A stretch of 64,000 bases of DNA from a virus: positions 1 to 64,000 of IMG/VR virus record IMGVR_UViG_3300009163_000025; one strand, 5' to 3'. Shown piece by piece: positions 14,839 through 36,890 of the stretch. The translations under genes were made by a program, and so were the position numbers. Under the pieces are notes generated by a model that did no database searches, was not told the DNA's origin, and saw only the letters and a list, made by a program, of their open reading frames with translations. The first letter of the stretch is position 1; the number at the start of each line of letters is the position of its first letter.

Positions 14839-15856
14839 TTTGTTGAATCCTCATTTCACTTTCGCACATATCAAACACCAAGTCTTTGAATGTATACTCT
14901 GGTGTCCAACCCAAAACAGTTTTTGCTTTAGTGCAATCACCAAAGATCGTTGGCACTTCTGCTGGACGATAAAAGTCTTTGTTCACTTTGATGATAGTCT
15001 TACCCGTAGACTTATTGATGCCGACTTCATCTAAACCTTCACCACGCCATTCAATTTCAAATCCAAGATATGTCGCAACATCATTACAGAAGTCTTTTAC
15101 TGAATGCTCTTCACCACTAGAGATTGCATAGTCATCTGGTTTGTCTTGTTGCAGAATCAACCACATCGCACGAACGTAATCTTTAGCATGTCCCCAATCA
15201 CGCCTTGCTGTTAGATTTCCTAGTTCTAGAATATCTTGCAAACCGAGATGAGTGCGAATCATACCTAGTACAATTTTACGTGTAACAAATTCAGGACCTC
15301 TACGTGGGCTTTCGTGATTAAACAAAATACCATTGCATGAGAATAGATTAAAACTTTCACGATAGTTTACTGTGATCCAATAACCATACATCTTAGCAAC
15401 AGCATAAGGTGAACGTGGATAGAATGGAGTGTTTTCTGTTTGTGGAGTTTCTTTTACCTTACCATACAACTCACTAGTTGATGCTTGATAAAATTTGACT
15501 TGCTTTTCTTTGGCCAATCGTTTGACTGCTTCAAGCAATTTGAGTACGCCAAGAGCATTAACATCACCCGTATATGTTGGGCAATCATAACTTACGCTAA
15601 CGTGGCTTTGTGCGCCTAAGTTATAAACTTCATCTGGTCGCACTTTGATAACAATACTTTCAAGATTAGCCGCATCTGTTAGATCGCTATAGTGAAATGT
15701 AATTCGATGTTTGATATGGTTGATGTTTGCAGTATTGTTTCCTGTACTTGATCGGCGTACAAGACCATGCACATCATAACCTTTTTCAAGTAGAAGTTCT
15801 GCTAGGTAACTTCCATCTTGTCCTGTAATACCCGTAATCAAGGCAGTTTTTTGCAT
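14825..15856 (-). CDS. gmd: GDP-mannose 4,6-dehydratase
   Basis: ITGITGQDGSYLAE, YQASTSELYG, PRSPYAVAK, RDWGHAKDYV. Confidence 0.97.
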   Translation of the reverse strand: MQKTALITGITGQDGSYLAELLLEKGYDVHGLVRRSSTGNNTANINHIKHRITFHYSDLTDAANLESIVIKVRPDEVYNLGAQSHVSVSYDCPTYTGDVNALGVLKLLEAVKRLAKEKQVKFYQASTSELYGKVKETPQTENTPFYPRSPYAVAKMYGYWITVNYRESFNLFSCNGILFNHESPRRGPEFVTRKIVLGMIRTHLGLQDILELGNLTARRDWGHAKDYVRAMWLILQQDKPDDYAISSGEEHSVKDFCNDVATYLGFEIEWRGEGLDEVGINKSTGKTIIKVNKDFYRPAEVPTIFGDCTKAKTVLGWTPEYTFKDLVFDMCESEMRIQQNGNT

Positions 15857-15884
15857 ATTGTATTCATCCTATTTTATTGTGAAA

Positions 15885-16215
15885 TTAGTGACAGGTTATT
15901 CTGTTACGAGGAAACCTGTCGAAACCCTAAGCCGAGTTTAGGCGGCTAATGCGAAACGTGAGTCGTTTGCGTTTACTTTTTTTGCTTGATTAACGGTCAT
16001 CGCCTACCGTGCTGTCCACTCTGTTACTTGTTGCCCTGTCGAATCTAGATCAAGCCCATCATAAAAAGAATAAAAAAAACCAAAATAATAATACTCACTA
16101 CCCCGCAGGTATATTGGTATTTTACTTCAGGATCCATATAGTCTCCTTATGGTGGACTTGGGGGGATTCGCACCCCCGTCCAGGTCACTTTTCTCTTTGC
16201 TTCATACAGCAATAA
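15885..16215 (-). ncRNA. ssrA: Two-piece (circularly permuted) tmRNA, tag ANDSRFALAA
   Basis: Acceptor piece ends ...GGGGGTGCGAATCCCCCCAAGTCCACCA at 16150; coding piece starts GGGCTTGATCTAGATTCGAC at 16057; acceptor stem GGGCTTG/CAAGTCC has the G3:U70 Ala identity pair; tag ORF 15970-15938; outer ends approximate. Confidence 0.92.
16045..16137 (-). CDS. 30-aa single-TM peptide in the tmRNA intervening segment
   Basis: AGGAG SD 5 nt before ATG; MDPEVKYQYTCGVVSIIILVFFILFMMGLI*. Confidence 0.55.
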   Translation of the reverse strand: MDPEVKYQYTCGVVSIIILVFFILFMMGLI

Positions 16216-16216
16216 C

Positions 16217-16420
16217 TTACTCTCTACCCCATTTGATTTTCAACCAAATTCGTTCATGTATATAGTAGTCAACACTTAGCATAATATGCAATGCAGTTGC
16301 AAATCCAGTAGCATTACCTATATCACCGGTAAACAAATAAGTCCAAAAAATTGTAAACGCCCATGCAGTAACACGATATGTTAACATTCTCACTACGGTT
16401 CTTTTCTTTGTTTCAATCAT
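16217..16420 (-). CDS. DUF2061-like small membrane protein
   Basis: ET.KRT......YR....YY.HERIW.KI.WG pattern. Confidence 0.75.
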   Translation of the reverse strand: MIETKKRTVVRMLTYRVTAWAFTIFWTYLFTGDIGNATGFATALHIMLSVDYYIHERIWLKIKWGRE

Positions 16421-16448
16421 TATATCATTCTTTAATAAATTTTGCAAG

Positions 16449-29603: not shown

Positions 29604-29677
29604 TGGCATCCCGCCAGGGATTCGAACCCCGATCAACGGTTTTGGAGACCGCTATGTTGCCTTTACACTAGCGAGAT
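29604..29677 (-). tRNA. tRNA-Trp(CCA)
   Basis: Cloverleaf, loop CTCCAAA, encoded CCA. Confidence 0.9.
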
Positions 29678-29679
29678 AT

Positions 29680-29754
29680 TGGTGGGCTTAAGTGGATTCG
29701 AACCACTACCTTATCAATTATGAGTTGACGGCACTACCTTTATGCTATAAGCCC
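29680..29754 (-). tRNA. tRNA-Ile2(CAT), probably lysidine-modified
   Basis: Loop CTCATAA, GGGCTTA acceptor with paired 1:72; Ile2 versus Met assignment is inferred. Confidence 0.75.
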
Positions 29755-29757
29755 AAT

Positions 29758-29842
29758 TGGTATGAGTAGCCGGAATCGAACCGGCATGCCTTGCGGCGAG
29801 AGATTTTAAGTCTCTTGCGTCTACCTATTTCGCCATACTCAC
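29758..29842 (-). tRNA. tRNA-Leu(TAA)
   Basis: Loop CTTAAAA, long variable arm, CCA. Confidence 0.9.
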
Positions 29843-31111
29843 TCAACTACCATCATTTGCGATTTGAAGCCTCAACTCTTGCAGTTGGTGTAAGGTAATT
29901 TTATCGAAAAATCCATAGCCGAAGTGTGTATCAGAATCCATGATTTTAAAATTCTTTTCGTTGAAAACAAAACTTAGCGATCTGTAGTAATTTCTTGAGT
30001 CACCAAAACGCATTGCATGAATGAAATCATGAAACGCATCACTTTCTTCTAAGATTTTTTGCGCTGGTTCTTTAATTCCATTCCAGAATGGTGTATCGTG
30101 AATACTGCCATCACGATACATGTATGCGATAACAGTAGCAACATTATTAATTTCAGCAGATATTACCGCATTTGCTCCTTCTTTTGATCCACCATATGCA
30201 ATATACCCAACAATTGCACGATTGATTGTGTCATATAAGTGTAGTGAATTTGCAAATAGCGGTTCGAAAAATACAGCACGATTACCATTCTTAAAAATTC
30301 TTTTACCAATAATTTGTTTAGCACGATATGAATTGAATTTGTATTCAATATTTTGCAACTCTTCTACAGGAACACCAATCTCTTTAGAGAAATTTTGAAG
30401 TGCTTCTTCTTTCGTTGTTATTGTATCATTAAAAAGATATCCATAACTTTTTCTATTGGTTAATGGCACACCAAACATCCATCCATCCGGTGTCGCTCTA
30501 TGTAATGTATATTTCCATCCTTCTTTATCATCCTCTTGAACATTATGAACAAGGCAATGATTGACTGTTTGAACGGGCATCAAACTGTAATCTTCATATG
30601 ATTTTGGAAACCCACGACAATCTACAACAAAATCGTAATTGTGTTCTTCACCATCGATAACCATAGTGACTTTATCATCATGCTCCGTCATTGAATCGAC
30701 TGTACCAACTACTTCTTTAAATTTTTCACGCCAAACTTTTTTGAGTCTAGGTATTGCAAATTCTCTAAGTTTAAATGTATTAAAATGAATCGCCGCACTA
30801 CCATTAATTAATGGATTGTGAAAGTCGTGTTCACGCCAATTTTCAAATTTTGTTGTTAGTTTTAATGTTGCGTCTAATTCTTCTAAATTATCATACAAAT
30901 TAAATCGTGTACCATATTCAAGCGCAGTAATGAATGTTGGATTTGTACTCTCACCAATTCCTACAATAGGAATAGATGGATCATGAATTGACACAACCTC
31001 AAATTCAAGCCCATCAAGCCAAGCAAGAAAAAAAGATAATGACTGAATGCCAGCACTACCAGTTCCAATAACTGCAACTTTTTTCTTTATGATTTCTTTT
31101 ACACTATGCAT
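29843..31111 (-). CDS. Flavin-dependent tryptophan-halogenase-family protein
   Basis: GTGSAG, VGIGEST.P, AT.K, VDCRGF, GWMFGVP, FFEPL. Confidence 0.8.
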   Translation of the reverse strand: MHSVKEIIKKKVAVIGTGSAGIQSLSFFLAWLDGLEFEVVSIHDPSIPIVGIGESTNPTFITALEYGTRFNLYDNLEELDATLKLTTKFENWREHDFHNPLINGSAAIHFNTFKLREFAIPRLKKVWREKFKEVVGTVDSMTEHDDKVTMVIDGEEHNYDFVVDCRGFPKSYEDYSLMPVQTVNHCLVHNVQEDDKEGWKYTLHRATPDGWMFGVPLTNRKSYGYLFNDTITTKEEALQNFSKEIGVPVEELQNIEYKFNSYRAKQIIGKRIFKNGNRAVFFEPLFANSLHLYDTINRAIVGYIAYGGSKEGANAVISAEINNVATVIAYMYRDGSIHDTPFWNGIKEPAQKILEESDAFHDFIHAMRFGDSRNYYRSLSFVFNEKNFKIMDSDTHFGYGFFDKITLHQLQELRLQIANDGS

Positions 31112-31136
31112 TATTTCTCCTTAACGAATTTTATAA

Positions 31137-31742
31137 TTATTCAACTTTTTTCATCGTATTAAAACTAATAATCACTCTATTCTTAGTTTGATTTTGTTCA
31201 TAGTTTGACCCATGCTTTAACCAACTAGGAAAGAATAAAATATCTCCCGCACCAACTTTAATAGTCCAAAGATCGACAGTATACATTGTTTTGATTTTAG
31301 TTGGTGTTAAACATTTTATTTGATTCAATGGCGCATCAAATGTTATACCTGTACTATCCTCATCAACATTAATGTATATAGCGGCTGATGCCCAACTATC
31401 TGGATGATAATGTTGTTTTAAAACGCTACCTTCATGCTGTATTGCATACCATGAATTTGTGATAGCCAATCGATACATTCCAAATTTTTCTGCGTATTCA
31501 TTAATGCCATTTTCAAGAAATTCATACAGCCCATGACAACTTGGAATATTTTTTTCTAATTCTTGAATGAATAATGTTTCTTCAAGATAACTTGTCCTAA
31601 CGTTTCCAGTTAAAGTGTCGTGTGAAGTGCCGTGTGGTTTTGCCATTATATATTCAAATATATCTTTTCGGCGCTGTTCTTCAATGACACCTCTGTGCCA
31701 TCTAACCAAAGTTGGGAATATATCAAAGTCTATTGTTTCCAT
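31137..31742 (-). CDS. 2OG-Fe(II) oxygenase (TIGR02466-like)
   Basis: HxH..S..SA..Y, FFPSWL.H, R..ISFN. Confidence 0.85.
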   Translation of the reverse strand: METIDFDIFPTLVRWHRGVIEEQRRKDIFEYIMAKPHGTSHDTLTGNVRTSYLEETLFIQELEKNIPSCHGLYEFLENGINEYAEKFGMYRLAITNSWYAIQHEGSVLKQHYHPDSWASAAIYINVDEDSTGITFDAPLNQIKCLTPTKIKTMYTVDLWTIKVGAGDILFFPSWLKHGSNYEQNQTKNRVIISFNTMKKVE

Positions 31743-31743
31743 A

Positions 31744-32265
31744 TCAAACGAAAAATGTAAATGTTAATCGGGAATCTTCAATTGTAGTTCCAAAAAATCT
31801 TTGTGGACGATGAAGTATATTCTTATATAGCACAAGTCGGTTAAATTTATTTTCAACTACAATTTCTTTACCATTTGAAACCAAAATCGTTCCACTATTA
31901 GGTTCAGGTGTTTTATTTAGATAGATCACACCAGCACAAGAACATTGATCTGTGTGCCACCAATGCCGAACTGGTATATCATAATTAGCAAATTCTGGAA
32001 TGATTGCAAGATATGCACTTGCCTTTGTGTAATCGAATTTAACTGACTTTGATACTATTTGTTTCAATGTATCAATTTGAGTCTTACTGATATCCGTAGA
32101 ACGATATCCACGCCACATTGCAGGCGGCCGTGAAGGTTCATTGGAGTCAATTTGAACTCCATCAATAATCCTGTCTTCAAATGTATAATAAGTTGCAATC
32201 CTTGAAAGTGCGACTAATTGATCTGGATCAGATAAAATGTTATCAACTACAATATAATCATTCAT
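31744..32265 (-). CDS. DUF6445-like 2OG-Fe(II) oxygenase-fold protein
   Basis: HTD, AGVIYL....GT, FNRLVLY...H, RLT.TFF. Confidence 0.65.
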   Translation of the reverse strand: MNDYIVVDNILSDPDQLVALSRIATYYTFEDRIIDGVQIDSNEPSRPPAMWRGYRSTDISKTQIDTLKQIVSKSVKFDYTKASAYLAIIPEFANYDIPVRHWWHTDQCSCAGVIYLNKTPEPNSGTILVSNGKEIVVENKFNRLVLYKNILHRPQRFFGTTIEDSRLTFTFFV

Positions 32266-32270
32266 AATTA

Positions 32271-32345
32271 TGGCCCGACCTGAGGGAATCGAACCCCCAT
32301 AATGACTTTAGAAGAATCATGTCCTATCCGTTGAACGAAGGTCGG
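32271..32345 (-). tRNA. tRNA-Arg(TCT)
   Basis: Loop CTTCTAA, CCA. Confidence 0.85.
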
Positions 32346-32352
32346 AATAAAT

Positions 32353-32426
32353 TGGAGCGGGATATGAGAATCGAACTCATAACTGAAGTTTGGAAGACTG
32401 CCGTTTTACCACTAAACTAATCCCGC
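32353..32426 (-). tRNA. tRNA-Gly(TCC)
   Basis: Loop CTTCCAA, U73, CCA. Confidence 0.9.
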
Positions 32427-32429
32427 AAT

Positions 32430-32504
32430 TGGTGGAGATGGAGAGAATCGAACTCTCAATTTCTGGTTGCAAACCAGATGTGTTCCCATTAGCACTACAC
32501 CCCC
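32430..32504 (-). tRNA. tRNA-Ala(TGC)
   Basis: Loop TTTGCAA, G3:U70. Confidence 0.9.
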
Positions 32505-33086
32505 TTAAATATCTTTCTTAACGTAATGACAATTAATTGCAATACTCAATCTATCTTCATCACTACGATTTTCATTTACATAATGCATTAGCCAACTAGG
32601 AAAAATCAAAAGTGTTCCTGCGTTAGGTGCTACAACAAATATACTGCTGTTGAATTCATTATAACTACTAATAATTTCGTCGGAATAAGAATGCAATGCG
32701 GCCGCATTTGGTGTTGTAAATTCTATAGTTCCAAATTCTTTTTTTCCTATTGGATAATAAACCGCACTAAAAAAAGAAGTTGGATGTGTATGAGGTTTGC
32801 TTGTTACATAACAATTATTTATTGTACACCAAGCCTCTCTAATTTTTAAAAAATATTCATCACTAAATCCATATCGTTTGTATACTTCATTAAATTTATT
32901 TTCAACATGATCGAATAAGTCTTTGATAACACCACTAACATTTTCTTGTCTTATCCAAGATTGATGATCCGACATACGATTTTTTTCTGTGATAAGATTT
33001 TTACGACAAAAATTAACAATTGACTCATTGTCCAATGATAATTGATCCACCGCTAAAAATGTTGTAAATATGTTCGTATATTGCAT
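32505..33086 (-). CDS. 2OG-Fe(II) oxygenase (TIGR02466-like)
   Basis: HTHP.S.FSAVYY, IFPSWL.H.V, RLSIA.N. Confidence 0.85.
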   Translation of the reverse strand: MQYTNIFTTFLAVDQLSLDNESIVNFCRKNLITEKNRMSDHQSWIRQENVSGVIKDLFDHVENKFNEVYKRYGFSDEYFLKIREAWCTINNCYVTSKPHTHPTSFFSAVYYPIGKKEFGTIEFTTPNAAALHSYSDEIISSYNEFNSSIFVVAPNAGTLLIFPSWLMHYVNENRSDEDRLSIAINCHYVKKDI

Positions 33087-33106
33087 AAATTCCCCACAAA
33101 ATAAAT

Positions 33107-33180
33107 TGGTCTCGATGGCAAGAATCGAACTTGCGCCTCATGGTCCCAAACCACGAATGATACCATTTCACCACACCGAG
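33107..33180 (-). tRNA. tRNA-Pro(TGG)
   Basis: Loop TTTGGGA, C1:G72, CCA. Confidence 0.9.
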
Positions 33181-33213
33181 TTTTCTCTATTATACATCAA
33201 TCTGCTATCAATG

Positions 33214-33957
33214 TCAAAGCAAATTGATTATATTCTTTACCAGACTGTCTACGTCATTTCTTGTTTTGCCGCCAAGAACAACAATTGCAAATCTGTCTTC
33301 TCTTTTATGTACAATCATCACAACGCATTTACCAGCAAGATTTGTTGTTCCGGTCTTGGACATTTCAATCACATCAAATTTAGATAACAAATTTTTATTT
33401 GTGCTATTGATTTCAATCAATCGCTCTCTATTCTTTTTATCATACACATGAAGATCATATTCACGCAATGATGCAATTTCTTTTATCTTCTCAATGTTAT
33501 ACGCATAATTCAGTAGTGTAACTAACTCAACTGCATTACTCACATTCTTTGGACTCAATCCAGATGGGTCATCAAACTTTGTATTAACCATTCCTAACAT
33601 TTCTGCTTTACGATTCATTTGATATACGAACCATGCTTTACCATGATTGCTATCTGCTAATGCATCGGCTGCCTTGTTGTCACTTTTAACTAATAACAAA
33701 TTCAACAATTCTTCTCTAGTAAATTTTTTGCTAGAGAAAAACATTCCCCTATATGTAACTTTCTCATCCAATGGCAGTCCACTCTCCATGATAACAATAG
33801 CAGTCATCAATTTCGTAATACTTGCAATTGGTTTTACATCATAAATTTCAGAGTCAACTATTGGAATATCTTTTGTTATGTTATGTGCGTAAACTGTTAT
33901 TGCATTTGCATTCATACACATAAAAACTGTGAGTATGCAATATAGTATTTTTTTCAT
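33214..33957 (-). CDS. D-alanyl-D-alanine peptidase, peptidase S11 (PBP5/PBP7-like)
   Basis: SxxK (ASITKLMT), SxN (SDN), KTG motifs; signal peptide. Confidence 0.9.
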   Translation of the reverse strand: MKKILYCILTVFMCMNANAITVYAHNITKDIPIVDSEIYDVKPIASITKLMTAIVIMESGLPLDEKVTYRGMFFSSKKFTREELLNLLLVKSDNKAADALADSNHGKAWFVYQMNRKAEMLGMVNTKFDDPSGLSPKNVSNAVELVTLLNYAYNIEKIKEIASLREYDLHVYDKKNRERLIEINSTNKNLLSKFDVIEMSKTGTTNLAGKCVVMIVHKREDRFAIVVLGGKTRNDVDSLVKNIINLL

Positions 33958-33967
33958 ATTTACTTTC

Positions 33968-34042
33968 TGGTACCTTGTGACAGGATCGAACTGCCGACCT
34001 TCTCCGTGTAAAGGAGTTACTCTACCGCTGAGTTAACAAGGC
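33968..34042 (-). tRNA. tRNA-Val(TAC)
   Basis: Loop TTTACAC, CCA. Confidence 0.9.
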
Positions 34043-34047
34043 GTTAT

Positions 34048-34121
34048 TGGTGCCCCTTGACAGAATCGAACTGCCGTAACCTGATTACAAAACAGGCGTA
34101 ATACCATTATACTAAAGGGGC
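34048..34121 (-). tRNA. tRNA-Thr(TGT)
   Basis: Loop TTTGTAA, CCA. Confidence 0.9.
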
Positions 34122-34140
34122 TCATACTTTATATATCTAT

Positions 34141-34214
34141 TGGCAGAGGGTACAAGAATCGAACTTGTGACAACGGAATCAAAATCCGTGGTTATACCAT
34201 TTAACTAACCCCCA
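34141..34214 (-). tRNA. tRNA-Gln(TTG)
   Basis: Loop TTTTGAT; U1:U72 mismatch; CCA. Confidence 0.88.
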
Positions 34215-34219
34215 ACATT

Positions 34220-34309
34220 TGGTGGAAGCGGTGAGATTCGAACTCACGGACCCTTTCGGATCGACAGTTTTCAAGACTGTTGCCATAAACCTGACTCGAC
34301 CACGCTTCC
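34220..34309 (-). tRNA. tRNA-Ser(TGA)
   Basis: Loop CTTGAAA, long variable arm. Confidence 0.9.
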
Positions 34310-34315
34310 ATTAAT

Positions 34316-34390
34316 TGGCACCCAATGAAGGAATCAAACCTCCAACTCCTCGTTCGTAGCAAGGTGTGATATTCATTTCACTAATCGGGT
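34316..34390 (-). tRNA. tRNA-Arg(ACG)
   Basis: Loop CTACGAA; variant T-loop TTTGATT. Confidence 0.85.
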
Positions 34391-34393
34391 AAT

Positions 34394-34476
34394 TGGTGCC
34401 CCAAGAGAGACTTGAACTCTCACGCACTAGGCACTGGCTTCTAAGACCAGCGTGTCTACCATTCCACCATCGGGGC
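34394..34476 (-). tRNA. tRNA-Leu(TAG)
   Basis: Loop CTTAGAA, long variable arm. Confidence 0.9.
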
Positions 34477-34484
34477 AATATACT

Positions 34485-34558
34485 TGGTACCCAGTAGAGG
34501 TATCGATCCTCTGATTAACGCTTATCAAGCGTTTGTTATACCATTTAACTAACCGGGC
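34485..34558 (-). tRNA. tRNA-Ile(GAT)
   Basis: Loop TTGATAA; T-loop ATCGATA. Confidence 0.85.
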
Positions 34559-34563
34559 ATATT

Positions 34564-34639
34564 TGGTACCGACTTCAGGTTACGATCCTGATTCTCTGGT
34601 TTTTCAAACCAGCGCAATGACCACACTTGCTCAATCGGC
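34564..34639 (-). tRNA. tRNA-Phe(GAA)
   Basis: Loop TTGAAAA; T-loop ATCGTAA; 5' end overlaps the stop of the upstream CDS. Confidence 0.82.
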
Positions 34640-35215
34640 AGAACCATTTCCGTTCTTAAATCCTACTACACCACCTTCTTCTTTGATGCGTTTGATAACG
34701 TCTTCAAAAAGAATTGGCGTGTAATCTGTTTGTTCTACACATACACAATAGTATCTTGGATCGGGAACTGGAACACCATACTTACCTACTGGTTGCATCA
34801 TCACTCTGTTAGAATGTAGATGCCCATGAATGTTCACACCGAATCTTCCAAGACTGTCTACGTGAATAGGAATGTGAGAAAGAATCATTCCGTTCATTAC
34901 ATGATAAGCACGTAACTCTCTAAAATATTTTCTATACTCATCATCACGAAAAATATCGTGATTACCACGAATTAAAACTTTGTCACCATTTAGCCTACTC
35001 ATAATGCCTAGACTTTTACGATTGATAACAACATCGCCTAGATGATAAACTTTATCGTTAGGGCGAACTCTATCATTCCAGCGCCTAACCATTTCTTCAT
35101 CCATCTCATCTGCATTATCCCATGGACGTAGTTTTGTCACACCATCATTACGCATGAATCTACACACACCAGTGTGACCAAAGTGTGTGTCACTAACTAA
35201 AAATACTGATGGCAT
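34631..35215 (-). CDS. Calcineurin-like phosphoesterase
   Basis: SDTHFGH, YHLGD, GNHD, SH.P, HGHLH. Confidence 0.9.
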   Translation of the reverse strand: MPSVFLVSDTHFGHTGVCRFMRNDGVTKLRPWDNADEMDEEMVRRWNDRVRPNDKVYHLGDVVINRKSLGIMSRLNGDKVLIRGNHDIFRDDEYRKYFRELRAYHVMNGMILSHIPIHVDSLGRFGVNIHGHLHSNRVMMQPVGKYGVPVPDPRYYCVCVEQTDYTPILFEDVIKRIKEEGGVVGFKNGNGSAD

Positions 35216-35229
35216 ATATTACTCCTTTG

Positions 35230-35304
35230 TGGGGTGTCTAATGAGGATCGAACTCATACGGAGGGAATCACAATCCCTAATGCTACCACTACATCATAGA
35301 CACC
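35230..35304 (-). tRNA. tRNA-His(GTG)
   Basis: Loop TTGTGAT, encoded G-1:C73. Confidence 0.9.
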
Positions 35305-35312
35305 ATAAAAAT

Positions 35313-35387
35313 TGGTAGGGGCACCGAGAATCGAACTCGGATTAATAGGTTAAAAGCCTACTACTTTAGCCGTTAAGTTATGCCCCC
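35313..35387 (-). tRNA. tRNA-Lys(TTT)
   Basis: Loop CTTTTAA, CCA. Confidence 0.9.
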
Positions 35388-35391
35388 ATAT

Positions 35392-35466
35392 TGGTGGTTC
35401 AGGTTGGATTCGAGCCAACGACCTACTCCGTATGAAGGAGTTGCACTACCGCTGTGCTACTGAACC
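35392..35466 (-). tRNA. tRNA-Met(CAT), elongator
   Basis: Loop TTCATAC, fully paired acceptor stem. Confidence 0.8.
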
Positions 35467-35469
35467 GAT

Positions 35470-35555
35470 TGGTGGAGAATCAGGGATTCGAACCCCGTAT
35501 ACCTTAAGGTGACAGATTTACAGTCTGCTGAAGTCGCCAATGCTTCTCATTCTCC
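35470..35555 (-). tRNA. tRNA-Tyr(GTA)
   Basis: Loop CTGTAAA, long variable arm. Confidence 0.9.
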
Positions 35556-35561
35556 GTTGTT

Positions 35562-35640
35562 TGGCTCCGAGTAAGAGAATCGAACTCTTCTAACCAGTGA
35601 TTAACAGTCACGCCCATGCACCTTGCTCGGGTTTCTCGGA
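35562..35640 (-). tRNA. tRNA-Asn(GTT)
   Basis: Loop CTGTTAA; enlarged D-arm. Confidence 0.85.
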
Positions 35641-35644
35641 ATAA

Positions 35645-35857
35645 ATGCTTTCTCTCTGCGGCGGTAATTATAGTACTAATGGACTCTGAGGACGTCTGTT
35701 TTACCAGACACTCATACCACGTACCCTCCACCCGCTCCCCGACCAGAGAAAACTCTCGTATTGCCAACGCTACTTTGGTAAGAGTAGTACCACACTTGAG
35801 TAACGAACTCACTTCACTTCCTGCGTGTCACAGTAGCCAGACGTTACTCCAGCGGGT
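35645..35857 (-). ncRNA. Unidentified ~210-nt structured RNA between tRNA-fMet and tRNA-Asn
   Basis: GC-rich, multiple nested and pseudoknot-type pairings; no credible ORF. Confidence 0.65.
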
Positions 35858-35858
35858 T

Positions 35859-35931
35859 TGGTTGCAGGTAGTGGTAACGCTCCACTCTCGCTATGGCTTA
35901 TGAGACCATGCGGGTCCTTGACCTACCTGCG
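35859..35931 (-). tRNA. Initiator-type tRNA-fMet(CAT), atypical
   Basis: Loop CTCATAA, C1:A72 mismatch, A73-CCA; short D-arm, T-loop AGCGTTA. Confidence 0.75.
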
Positions 35932-35934
35932 ATA

Positions 35935-36390
35935 TTACTTTATAACTTGTAGATACTCGTAATTAACTGTATCTTCGTTTTCTCTAAACACTATTGCACC
36001 ATTACGTGTATGAAACCTTTTGGCTAAATCAGTCTTTGGTGATAGTGTCACAAATCGTTTAATGTCTGGATTGTTTTCTTTGATAGATTTTACCGCTTCA
36101 AATATCAATGTGCGACCTGCTCCTGGTGCGTAACTCCATATCGTATAGAATACAGCAACATCTGGCGTATCACAAATCTCAAACAACTCAGATTCTTTTG
36201 TTGGAATCATGTTTTGATAACTAACACATGTCATTGCTTTCACTTCATCTTGTTCATTGCGGAACACAAAGATATCTCTGTTCTTTCCGATTCTATCAAC
36301 GTGAGGAATGTTTGGGCGAACTGGATCGTCAATCAAAAATTCAAAAAACTTATCAGTCAATTCTTTTATAGTACGTATCATATTATTCAT
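35935..36390 (-). CDS. Hypothetical protein resembling the GNAT-fold malonyl-CoA decarboxylase C-terminal domain
   Basis: AVFYTIWS, GAGR.LI, KRFVTLSP motifs. Confidence 0.5.
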   Translation of the reverse strand: MNNMIRTIKELTDKFFEFLIDDPVRPNIPHVDRIGKNRDIFVFRNEQDEVKAMTCVSYQNMIPTKESELFEICDTPDVAVFYTIWSYAPGAGRTLIFEAVKSIKENNPDIKRFVTLSPKTDLAKRFHTRNGAIVFRENEDTVNYEYLQVIK

Positions 36391-36414
36391 TTCTTAAAAT
36401 TATAAATCGTCATA

Positions 36415-36422
36415 TATTTATA
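36415..36422 (-). promoter_or_regulatory. T4-type late promoter inside tRNA array
   Basis: TATAAATA on the minus strand, 24 nt upstream of the 36390 ATG. Confidence 0.55.
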
Positions 36423-36429
36423 TAAAATC

Positions 36430-36505
36430 TGGCGGTCTTAGGGGGTAACGATCCCCACTCTTATGGCGTGACAAGCCATCGTGCGTCCATGAACACTTTA
36501 AGACC
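36430..36505 (-). tRNA. tRNA-Asp(GTC)
   Basis: Loop TTGTCAC, G73, CCA. Confidence 0.88.
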
Positions 36506-36510
36506 AATCT

Positions 36511-36598
36511 TGGCGGAGAGTATCAGATTCGAACTGATGCATCGCTTTCGCAATGACGGTTTAGCAAACCGCTGGTTTAACCACTCACCCAACTCTCC
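36511..36598 (-). tRNA. tRNA-Ser(GCT)
   Basis: Loop TTGCTAA, long variable arm. Confidence 0.9.
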
Positions 36599-36604
36599 TT
36601 TGTT

Positions 36605-36681
36605 TGGAATAGGTGACAGGACTCGAACCTGCATGAAACGGATTTGCAATCCGTAGCCTAACCATTCGGCGACACACCTAC
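36605..36681 (-). tRNA. tRNA-Cys(GCA)
   Basis: Loop TTGCAAA, U73. Confidence 0.9.
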
Positions 36682-36692
36682 GTATCTAATTC

Positions 36693-36820
36693 TACCATTT
36701 GTTTTGCTGACGCACTATTTGCAAAGCCTCAACGGAATTGGTGGCCACACTACCGTTTATTGACAGAGTTACTCAAGGTTGACGTTTACCTCATGGCTTA
36801 CGTCAGCAAAACAAATGGTA
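36693..36820 (-). ncRNA. Unidentified ~125-nt RNA closed by a perfect 20-bp inverted repeat
   Basis: 36693-36712 is the exact reverse complement of 36801-36820; internal hairpins. Confidence 0.6.
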
Positions 36821-36890
36821 CTCGGTAGGGGAATCGAACCCCTCTTTCCGGCGTGAAAGGCCAGCGTCCTAACCGATAGACGAACCGAGC
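36816..36890 (-). tRNA. tRNA-Glu(TTC)
   Basis: Loop CTTTCAC, CCA. Confidence 0.9.

Follow-up and report, generated by a model that had tools for sequence, protein, structure and literature searches.

The question raised by this locus is whether the segment that separates the two pieces of a permuted transfer-messenger RNA (tmRNA) gene, and that is absent from the mature RNA, is itself a gene. The tmRNA lies on the minus strand of what we call the window, the whole 64,000-nucleotide (nt) stretch of lake-phage DNA analysed, which makes up the first 64 kb of the 88-kb, about half-complete IMG/VR virus record IMGVR_UViG_3300009163_000025. We think it likely that the intervening segment, or spacer, of this two-piece tmRNA gene is also a small protein-coding gene, which is excised in maturation and occupies an exchangeable slot, and that the window carries a variant allele of it. 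That the tmRNA spacer holds a real, conserved gene for a small membrane peptide has, on the sequence comparisons described here, a high probability.

At 15847-16242 (-), ARAGORN reports a tmRNA of the permuted type, in which the 3' tRNA domain precedes the 5' tRNA domain and the tag is ANDSRFALAA. Two Rfam models exceed their gathering scores: RF04321 (tmRNA_permuted) at 15938-16211 (-), with 132 bits where 47 are required, and RF01850, with 116.4 bits where 84 are required. As Table 1 shows, the acceptor piece, whose CCA is encoded at 16152-16150 (-), is followed by the spacer and then by the coding piece, in which the tag frame ends in ..LAA and a stop. The acceptor stem GGGCTTG/CAAGTCC pairs, including a G3:U pair. 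A G3:U70 pair in the acceptor stem is the identity rule for alanine. From the tRNA-like fold, G1 at 16057 is the expected site of RNase P cleavage.

Table 1. Features of the tmRNA locus and its surroundings, in window positions
Feature	Position	Strand	Remarks
tmRNA acceptor piece	16150..16211	-	T-arm, 3' acceptor strand CAAGTCC, encoded ACCA; RF04321 model positions 1 onward
Intervening segment (spacer), 92 nt	16058..16149	-	Begins TAAG, ends TGAT; absent from mature tmRNA
Shine-Dalgarno (SD) sequence AGGAG	16143..16147	-	5 nt before ATG at 16137; paired with U-rich spacer 3' end in predicted precursor fold
Open reading frame (ORF), 30 codons + TAG, for a single-helix hydrophobic peptide	16045..16137	-	Frameshifted allele of conserved 26-codon family
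2-nt deletion in T-run (approximate site)	16069..16073	-	From alignment with all 10 other unique family-B members
Conserved TGA of TTATGAT motif	16059..16061	-	Normal stop of the family; out of frame in window
tmRNA coding piece	15880..16057	-	G1 at 16057; tag frame GCA..TAA 15970-15938 (ANDSRFALAA)
DUF2061 predicted membrane protein, 67 amino acids (aa)	16217..16420	-	Pfam PF09834, E 3e-06, 28 bits against cut-off 23.1
Sigma-70-like promoter candidate	16419..16447	-	TTGCAA, 17 nt, TATAAT, TG before -10; 10/12 matches

An earlier note on this DNA had described a 92-nt spacer that opens with TAAGGAG and is filled by a hydrophobic ORF at 16137-16045, a description that proves exact when the sequence is read directly. 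The product would be a peptide of 30 aa, MDPEVKYQYTCGVVSIIILVFFILFMMGLI, that is polar and acidic at its head (MDPEVKYQY..) and hydrophobic in its tail; its best 15-residue Kyte-Doolittle window reaches 3.3. The note was also right that the last codons extend beyond the spacer, as the stop codon TAG (16047-16045) lies 13 nt inside the mature tmRNA 5' end.

A complete scan of viral contigs for CCA followed by TAAGGAG returned 57 stretches, of which 53 could be parsed (those not parsed are L222, L233, L237 and L252). At 49 of the 53 loci, an ORF begins 10-19 nt into the spacer and encodes 20 aa or more. The check that the earlier note had proposed, a look for an SD and a hydrophobic ORF in the spacers of related phages, comes out positive: 38 of the 53 encode a hydrophobic peptide of 22-26 aa that ends at the TGA of TTATGAT, 1 nt before G1, and these amount to 26 unique peptides. 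When unique ORF-bearing TAAGGAG spacers are counted, 27/34 stop at this TGA and 4/34 stop earlier. In the bacterial and archaeal genomes of 185,579 species CCA-TAAGGAG, the sole pattern scanned for cellular spacer ORFs, was found in one stretch only. That stretch (L256 256-286) is in a 4.5-kb contig of an Aerophobetes metagenome-assembled genome, on which ARAGORN calls no tmRNA.

The window's own family, which we call family B, has 26 codons and comprises 5 viral loci and 11 from a codon-degenerate scan of the metagenome collection, some being the same contigs present in both collections. With the window excluded, these 16 loci give 10 unique spacers and 8 unique peptides. Every one of the 10 unique spacers has a 26-codon ORF that ends at the TTATGAT TGA (for example MDPEVKYQYTCGILSVIILVFLIFFL), and the other two frames are closed in all of them. 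The spacer length is 94 nt in nine; in the tenth (L264), no G1 was found after TTATGAT. The bases that follow the motif there are not a GGG.. acceptor strand, and the coding piece may be further off or lost. Members of the family share an SD directly after the CCA, an ATG 12 nt into the spacer, the N-terminus MDPE(V/M)KYQY and then a hydrophobic helix. The window has all of these, and its peptide is identical to that of L230 in 20 of the first 21 residues; it departs from the family in its 92-nt spacer, its 30 codons and a stop at +13 in place of the TTATGAT TGA after 26 codons.

Sequence variation in these families follows the reading frame. For the whole family-B ORF, the ratio of nonsynonymous to synonymous polymorphism (pN/pS) is 0.30 in frame, versus 0.76 and 2.53 in the shifted frames, and the variable columns are distributed 6/2/9 over the three codon positions. 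As codons 1-9 of family B were set by the search pattern, codons 10-26 were also computed alone, which gave a pN/pS of 0.41 and variable columns of 5/2/7. The replacements within these codons are limited to T/V, I/L/V, L/V, S/T, I/V and F/L, all of them conservative. The sister family A (24 codons, 19 loci, 13 unique coding sequences) has a pN/pS of 0.19 in frame versus 0.65 and 3.59 in the shifted frames, with variable columns of 13/4/20. Since the scan for family A fixed nothing inside the ORF, it gives the cleaner selection signal. By these measures, families A and B are coding sequences under purifying selection, which argues against a pure leader peptide, for which only the act of translation would matter.

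To see how often such an ORF occurs irrespective of motif, loci were chosen blind to spacer content, by the neighbouring exonuclease gene (80 loci) and by a T-arm/acceptor pattern scan (at least 119 stretches). ARAGORN over 200 loci reported 118 permuted and 12 standard tmRNAs, with 72 loci lacking a tmRNA call. The census set consisted of 99 unique spacers of at least 15 nt from phage permuted tmRNAs, without the window. Of these, 10/99 combine an SD with a start codon (ATG or GTG) at 6-21 nt and a frame of 20 or more codons that closes within 15 nt of G1, versus none in the reverse complement and a mean of 0.14 (maximum 1) in 300 shuffles. If the SD is not required, the count is 18/99 versus 0 in the reverse complement and a shuffle mean of 2.95 (maximum 8). 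Spacers with an ORF exceed the others in length (median 118 nt versus 72 nt). An ORF measure that accepted TTG and GTG starts and required no SD proved too noisy in short spacers and was abandoned.

Several points weigh against the coding interpretation. Family B is shallow, with 10 unique sequences and a pS of only 0.2, and with its first nine codons fixed by the pattern its signal is modest. Since the SD is predicted to be paired in the precursor, translation could also be poor. Hydrophobic codons arise in any frame of the U-rich 3' half of the spacer, and the spacer ends are conserved for reasons other than coding: 82/99 of the unique spacers end in TGAT and 72/99 begin with NAAG or NAAA, coding or not. 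Taken to their limit, these last points would make the ORF a chance feature of a plain processing spacer, with TAAGGAG as part of a conserved closing stem and hydrophobicity as a product of U-richness, and short spacers do often contain spurious ORFs that lack an SD and start with TTG or GTG. We nevertheless regard a chance ORF as very improbable. Variation falls mostly at the third codon position, with a pN/pS of 0.19-0.41 in the ORF frame only; that frame is open in every family member while the others are closed; and neither the enrichment in the census nor the greater length of ORF-bearing spacers fits a chance origin.

The protein-coding spacer is not the only kind. Close relatives of the window's tmRNA and of its spacer can be found apart from each other: L003 has flanks 87-96% identical to those of the window around an unrelated (43%) non-coding spacer of 88 nt, and L220 and L228 have spacers 88-91% identical to the window's between unrelated flanks (41-46%). 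Other spacers carry a 50-aa family (L010, L162, L181), a 52-aa family (L064, L073, L079), ORFs of 39-66 aa, an 83-aa membrane protein and many hairpin-rich RNAs. Judged from these comparisons, the tmRNA spacer behaves as a general slot whose content, small genes or structured RNA, is exchanged between conserved tmRNA flanks. A cultured example is the Methylophilales phage Melnitz-1 (MZ577095.1; L257 1521-1712, -), whose 142-nt spacer has a GGAG, an ATG and a basic ORF of 54 codons, with no stop inside the spacer and its end within the mature coding piece; no coding sequence is annotated there in GenBank. The spacers of phages Mosig (44 nt) and HTVC008M (49 nt) have no ORF.

Some individual spacers have features of their own. 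The 83-aa ORF, in the 273-nt spacer of L216, has at least two hydrophobic stretches and is the largest membrane cargo seen in the slot. The non-coding spacers of L005, L080, L122, L124 and L180 contain T-arm-like motifs (GGGTTCGAnnCCC-type), and in L005 the motif is followed by CCACCA, so that it looks as if a second mini tRNA-like element were present within the spacer. In L246, the ORF after CCA-TAAGGAG runs beyond the presumed G1; the spacer may hold a full-size gene there, or the tmRNA may be disrupted. The N-terminus of this ORF presumably resembles IscU/NifU.

We now return to the window's spacer, which differs from that of its family by the loss of 2 nt in a T-run (Table 1). The last codons change from ..LVFLIFFL-stop to ..LVFFILFMMGLI-stop, still hydrophobic; the TGA falls out of frame, and reading ends only at the TAG inside the tmRNA. 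L230, which has the intact 94-nt form, is otherwise nearly the same locus, with 100% identity in the acceptor piece, 99% in the coding piece and 98% in the spacer. The earlier note had read the overlap with the mature 5' end as a possible feedback switch by design, in which RNase P cleavage turns the message into a non-stop messenger RNA (mRNA) that the tmRNA clears, coupling peptide output to maturation. The overlap geometry is present in the window, and the SD and the stop region share nucleotides with the closing helix and the acceptor stem. Other spacer ORFs also enter the tmRNA (L084 by 13 nt, L108 by 28 and L146 by 39), five loci of one family of 49 or more aa have no stop within 40 nt, and the Melnitz-1 ORF reads into the tmRNA as well. 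A precedent for control through a non-stop message is arfA of Escherichia coli, which likewise has a stop-less message and a product held down by tmRNA (PMC10107115, in its available part). However, the stop-less state of arfA is conserved, whereas in family B it is a single allele: the 10 other unique members all stop 1 nt before G1, and only the window reads through.

With just 2 nt separating the window from the near-identical L230, and with most unique ORF-bearing TAAGGAG spacers stopping at the TTATGAT TGA or earlier, we think a designed feedback switch quite unlikely in this family. As the relatives keep their stop before G1, the overlap with the mature 5' end belongs to the allele and not to the design of the family, and, on this alignment, the 92-nt form looks like a recent variant allele. 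For spacer ORF families that read into the tmRNA, such as that of Melnitz-1, the non-stop idea may still hold.

A further doubt about our reading is that the loss could be a homopolymer assembly error, the real phage carrying the ordinary 94-nt, 26-codon form. The difference amounts to 2 nt within a T-run, the sole other member of the window's lineage (L230 = L259) has 94 nt, and two DNA contigs of sequencing run X2, spanning 16023-16155 and 16036-16155, carry 2 additional nt behind 16069 and 16072. The X2 contigs differ from the window elsewhere too and so come from relatives, not from the same strain. Moreover, 2-nt drops are rare in short-read assemblies, and a contig from RNA-library run X16, which belongs to another study, lacks the insertion at the deletion site (16069 and 16072, depth 7.2) and agrees with the window at 16078 and 16090. 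This contig gives weak support to the reality of the short allele, and we consider an error rather unlikely.

The sequencing runs have no bearing on expression. All four mapped runs are contigs, and their RNA-library coverage is not readable as expression or as RNA ends, which also weakens the case for a translated spacer. Depth is heaped on the conserved tmRNA parts, where many organisms contribute, and is low on the spacer; the spacer is uncovered in RNA-library run X15. On the tmRNA side of G1, the cover of X16 (about 16039-16094) extends less than 31 nt, too little to be counted as bridging the RNase P site, and this library may also contain DNA. Adapter-like loose ends at 16043 were rejected as RNA ends, as they belong to contigs of relatives.

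The two spacer ends form base pairs with one another: in the fold predicted for the window's precursor (-55.3 kcal/mol, z -3.3), CAUAAGGAGA and UCUUUUUAUG make a closing helix that stacks on the acceptor stem. Folded by itself, the spacer shows no excess of stability over its shuffles (z -1.1). Under a lenient classification, coding-like spacers are less structured than the rest (median z -1.59 vs -2.28, p 0.007) and lower in G+C (0.34 vs 0.40). The distance from the CCA to the start of the SD is 2 nt, and that from the normal stop of the family to G1 is 1 nt; given the size of a ribosome footprint, a ribosome at either end would therefore cover nucleotides of the acceptor stem. Translation and formation of the RNase P substrate would then be mutually exclusive on one molecule. 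The competition between translation and tmRNA maturation that the earlier note proposed thus stands in part, since by geometry the same nucleotides are used and the SD is paired in the predicted fold; the feedback switch as a design does not.

From the observed gene anatomy, family, selection pattern and cassette distribution, we infer the following course of translation and its timing, of processing and of membrane insertion. The precursor would consist of the acceptor piece, the spacer and the coding piece, in that order, transcribed probably from the promoter-like site at 16447-16419. The SD and the short ORF directly after the CCA would encode a single-pass membrane peptide. As the SD is paired once the spacer 3' end has been made, the likeliest time for ribosomes to load would be during transcription of the precursor, while the U-rich 3' end is still to be made; the excised spacer may be loaded as well. 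The closing helix and the acceptor stem would form, RNase P would cut before G1, and the 3' end would be trimmed to the CCA. With the family's 26-codon ORF ending at UGA 1 nt before G1, the excised spacer would be a complete mini-mRNA. From the window's allele, the full 30-aa product could be made from unprocessed precursor only, the cut spacer being stop-less.

This course can be taken a step further, to an idea that we offer tentatively and that has perhaps a modest chance of being right. The excised spacer may be a bifunctional RNA, a ready mini-mRNA that opens with the SD and closes with UGA-U, and the contest between ribosome loading and tRNA-like folding may set the ratio of peptide to rescue RNA from one transcript. 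Where the frame runs into the tmRNA, as in the window, Melnitz-1 and others, the result could be a non-stop message whose product is tagged by its own tmRNA, a self-limiting loop. Two other possibilities concerning transcription were set aside. A T-run that ends a separate acceptor-piece transcript is unsupported, as a terminator scan of the region found none, and TATGAT before G1 was rejected as a -10 box because the transcript would start inside the mature RNA.

As to what the peptide does, searches of PHROGs and Pfam with the spacer peptides gave nothing below E 0.03, and at E up to 1 Pfam offered no family for the window peptide or three related peptides. A search of protein representatives with the 30-aa peptide gave two matches. 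One, P0001, is a 2887-aa repetitive protein (28 stretches) and was taken as a low-complexity artefact. The other, P0002, is a called protein of 45 aa whose first 26 residues are the family-B peptide, with W at the place of the family's TGA; this points to a TGA-to-TGG variant or to a call under another genetic code.

Peptides of type I toxin-antitoxin systems and small bacterial membrane proteins have 20-30 residues and one hydrophobic helix. The spacer peptide is similar to type I toxins in size and helix, with no homology, and we take its size and hydrophobicity to be like those of Ibs, TisB and Hok. It could accordingly be a type I-toxin-like or holin-like peptide that damages membranes and is held in check by RNA structure or an antisense RNA, and the pairing of the SD in the predicted fold would suit such control, as would a promoter-like site on the opposite strand at 16114-16142 (9/12 matches). 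However, promoter-like sites are not enriched in the region (4 vs 2.8 +/- 1.9 in shuffles), the hexamers of this site change among relatives, neither PHROGs nor Pfam provides a match, and the same slot in other phages holds clearly soluble proteins and RNAs; we therefore find the toxin interpretation doubtful. That the slot holds unrelated cargo favours another function, and our guess is an accessory that acts on the host membrane, with no obligatory link to trans-translation.

Two-piece tmRNAs have been published for aquatic T4-like phages of the Kyanoviridae, among them OM43 phage Melnitz and Pelagibacter phages Mosig and HTVC008M (PMC9004378). They share with the window the form of the gene, its neighbourhood and the aquatic origin, and the Melnitz-1 spacer likewise has an SD and an ORF. 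In its available part, that paper covers the phage tmRNA and a glutamine riboswitch and not the spacer ORF; the available part of PMC4131195 lists phage tmRNAs without a spacer-gene feature. Bacterial permuted tmRNAs (RF04321, RF01849-51) similarly have a tRNA-like domain and a CCA in the gene itself, and their mature RNA likewise lacks an intervening sequence (PMC11915505). A tRNA-Ala gene and a repetitive element have been noted inside such intervening sequences in that work, in whose main text, as available, the term 'ORF' has no occurrences. The CCA-TAAGGAG spacers differ from bacterial permuted tmRNAs in their distribution, with 57 viral stretches against the single one in cellular genomes.

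The closest parallel is found in Coxiella burnetii, whose 23S rRNA has an intervening sequence, a 428-nt selfish element with an ORF for S23p (PMC4990558); that ORF likewise lies inside a segment excised from the precursor of a stable RNA. There the RNA is an rRNA and the abstract suggests that the protein is not made, whereas the tmRNA spacer ORF appears to be under purifying selection; the spacer peptides have no S23p homology, as no Pfam family was found at E up to 1. In the full texts searched, supplementary tables aside, no description was found of a protein gene in a tmRNA intervening segment. The spacer gene belongs to the ORFs nested in processed precursors of stable RNAs, and the tmRNA case appears to be new.

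These observations suggest that the intervening segments of permuted tmRNAs, which have been treated as discarded, repeatedly house small genes under selection in aquatic phages. The genes would form a hidden class of phage small proteins, many of them membrane peptides of 22-26 aa that gene callers have missed, and phage tmRNA genes are therefore worth checking for nested coding sequences during annotation. A stable-RNA precursor would double as a messenger, and its translation would compete with its maturation for shared nucleotides. It may also provide a natural system for ribosomes on messages with ends made by RNase P, including stop-less variants that would be substrates of the tmRNA around them.

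Genes for PhoH and a PD-(D/E)XK exonuclease lie upstream of the tmRNA in the window, and the order PhoH, PD-(D/E)XK exonuclease, tmRNA is common to the window and the Kyanoviridae phages Melnitz-1, Mosig and HTVC008M. The best cultured match to the window PhoH is only 44-46% identical, so the window derives from an uncultured T4-like phage. Among cultured phage records, blastn found no match to the tmRNA region of the window, and with the tmRNA of L135 it returned short matches in the tRNA-like domain only. The cyanophages S-CREM1, S-H38 and DSL-LC02 have the exonuclease neighbourhood and no tmRNA at that place. The DNA runs that best cover the window stretch are labelled freshwater or plain 'metagenome'.

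Between the exonuclease gene and the tmRNA sits the DUF2061 gene, which ends 5 nt from the acceptor piece. The promoter candidate at 16447-16419, upstream of this gene and the tmRNA, probably starts the precursor transcript; with promoter-like sites as frequent in the region as given above, it is a match to consensus only. Its -10 box overlaps the ATG of the DUF2061 gene, so the true start of that gene may be a later Met. The close relative L003 has no DUF2061 gene there and instead has a TATAAT directly before its tmRNA. Finally, ARAGORN finds 23 clustered tRNA genes downstream of the studied region, at 29604-36890 (-) of the window.

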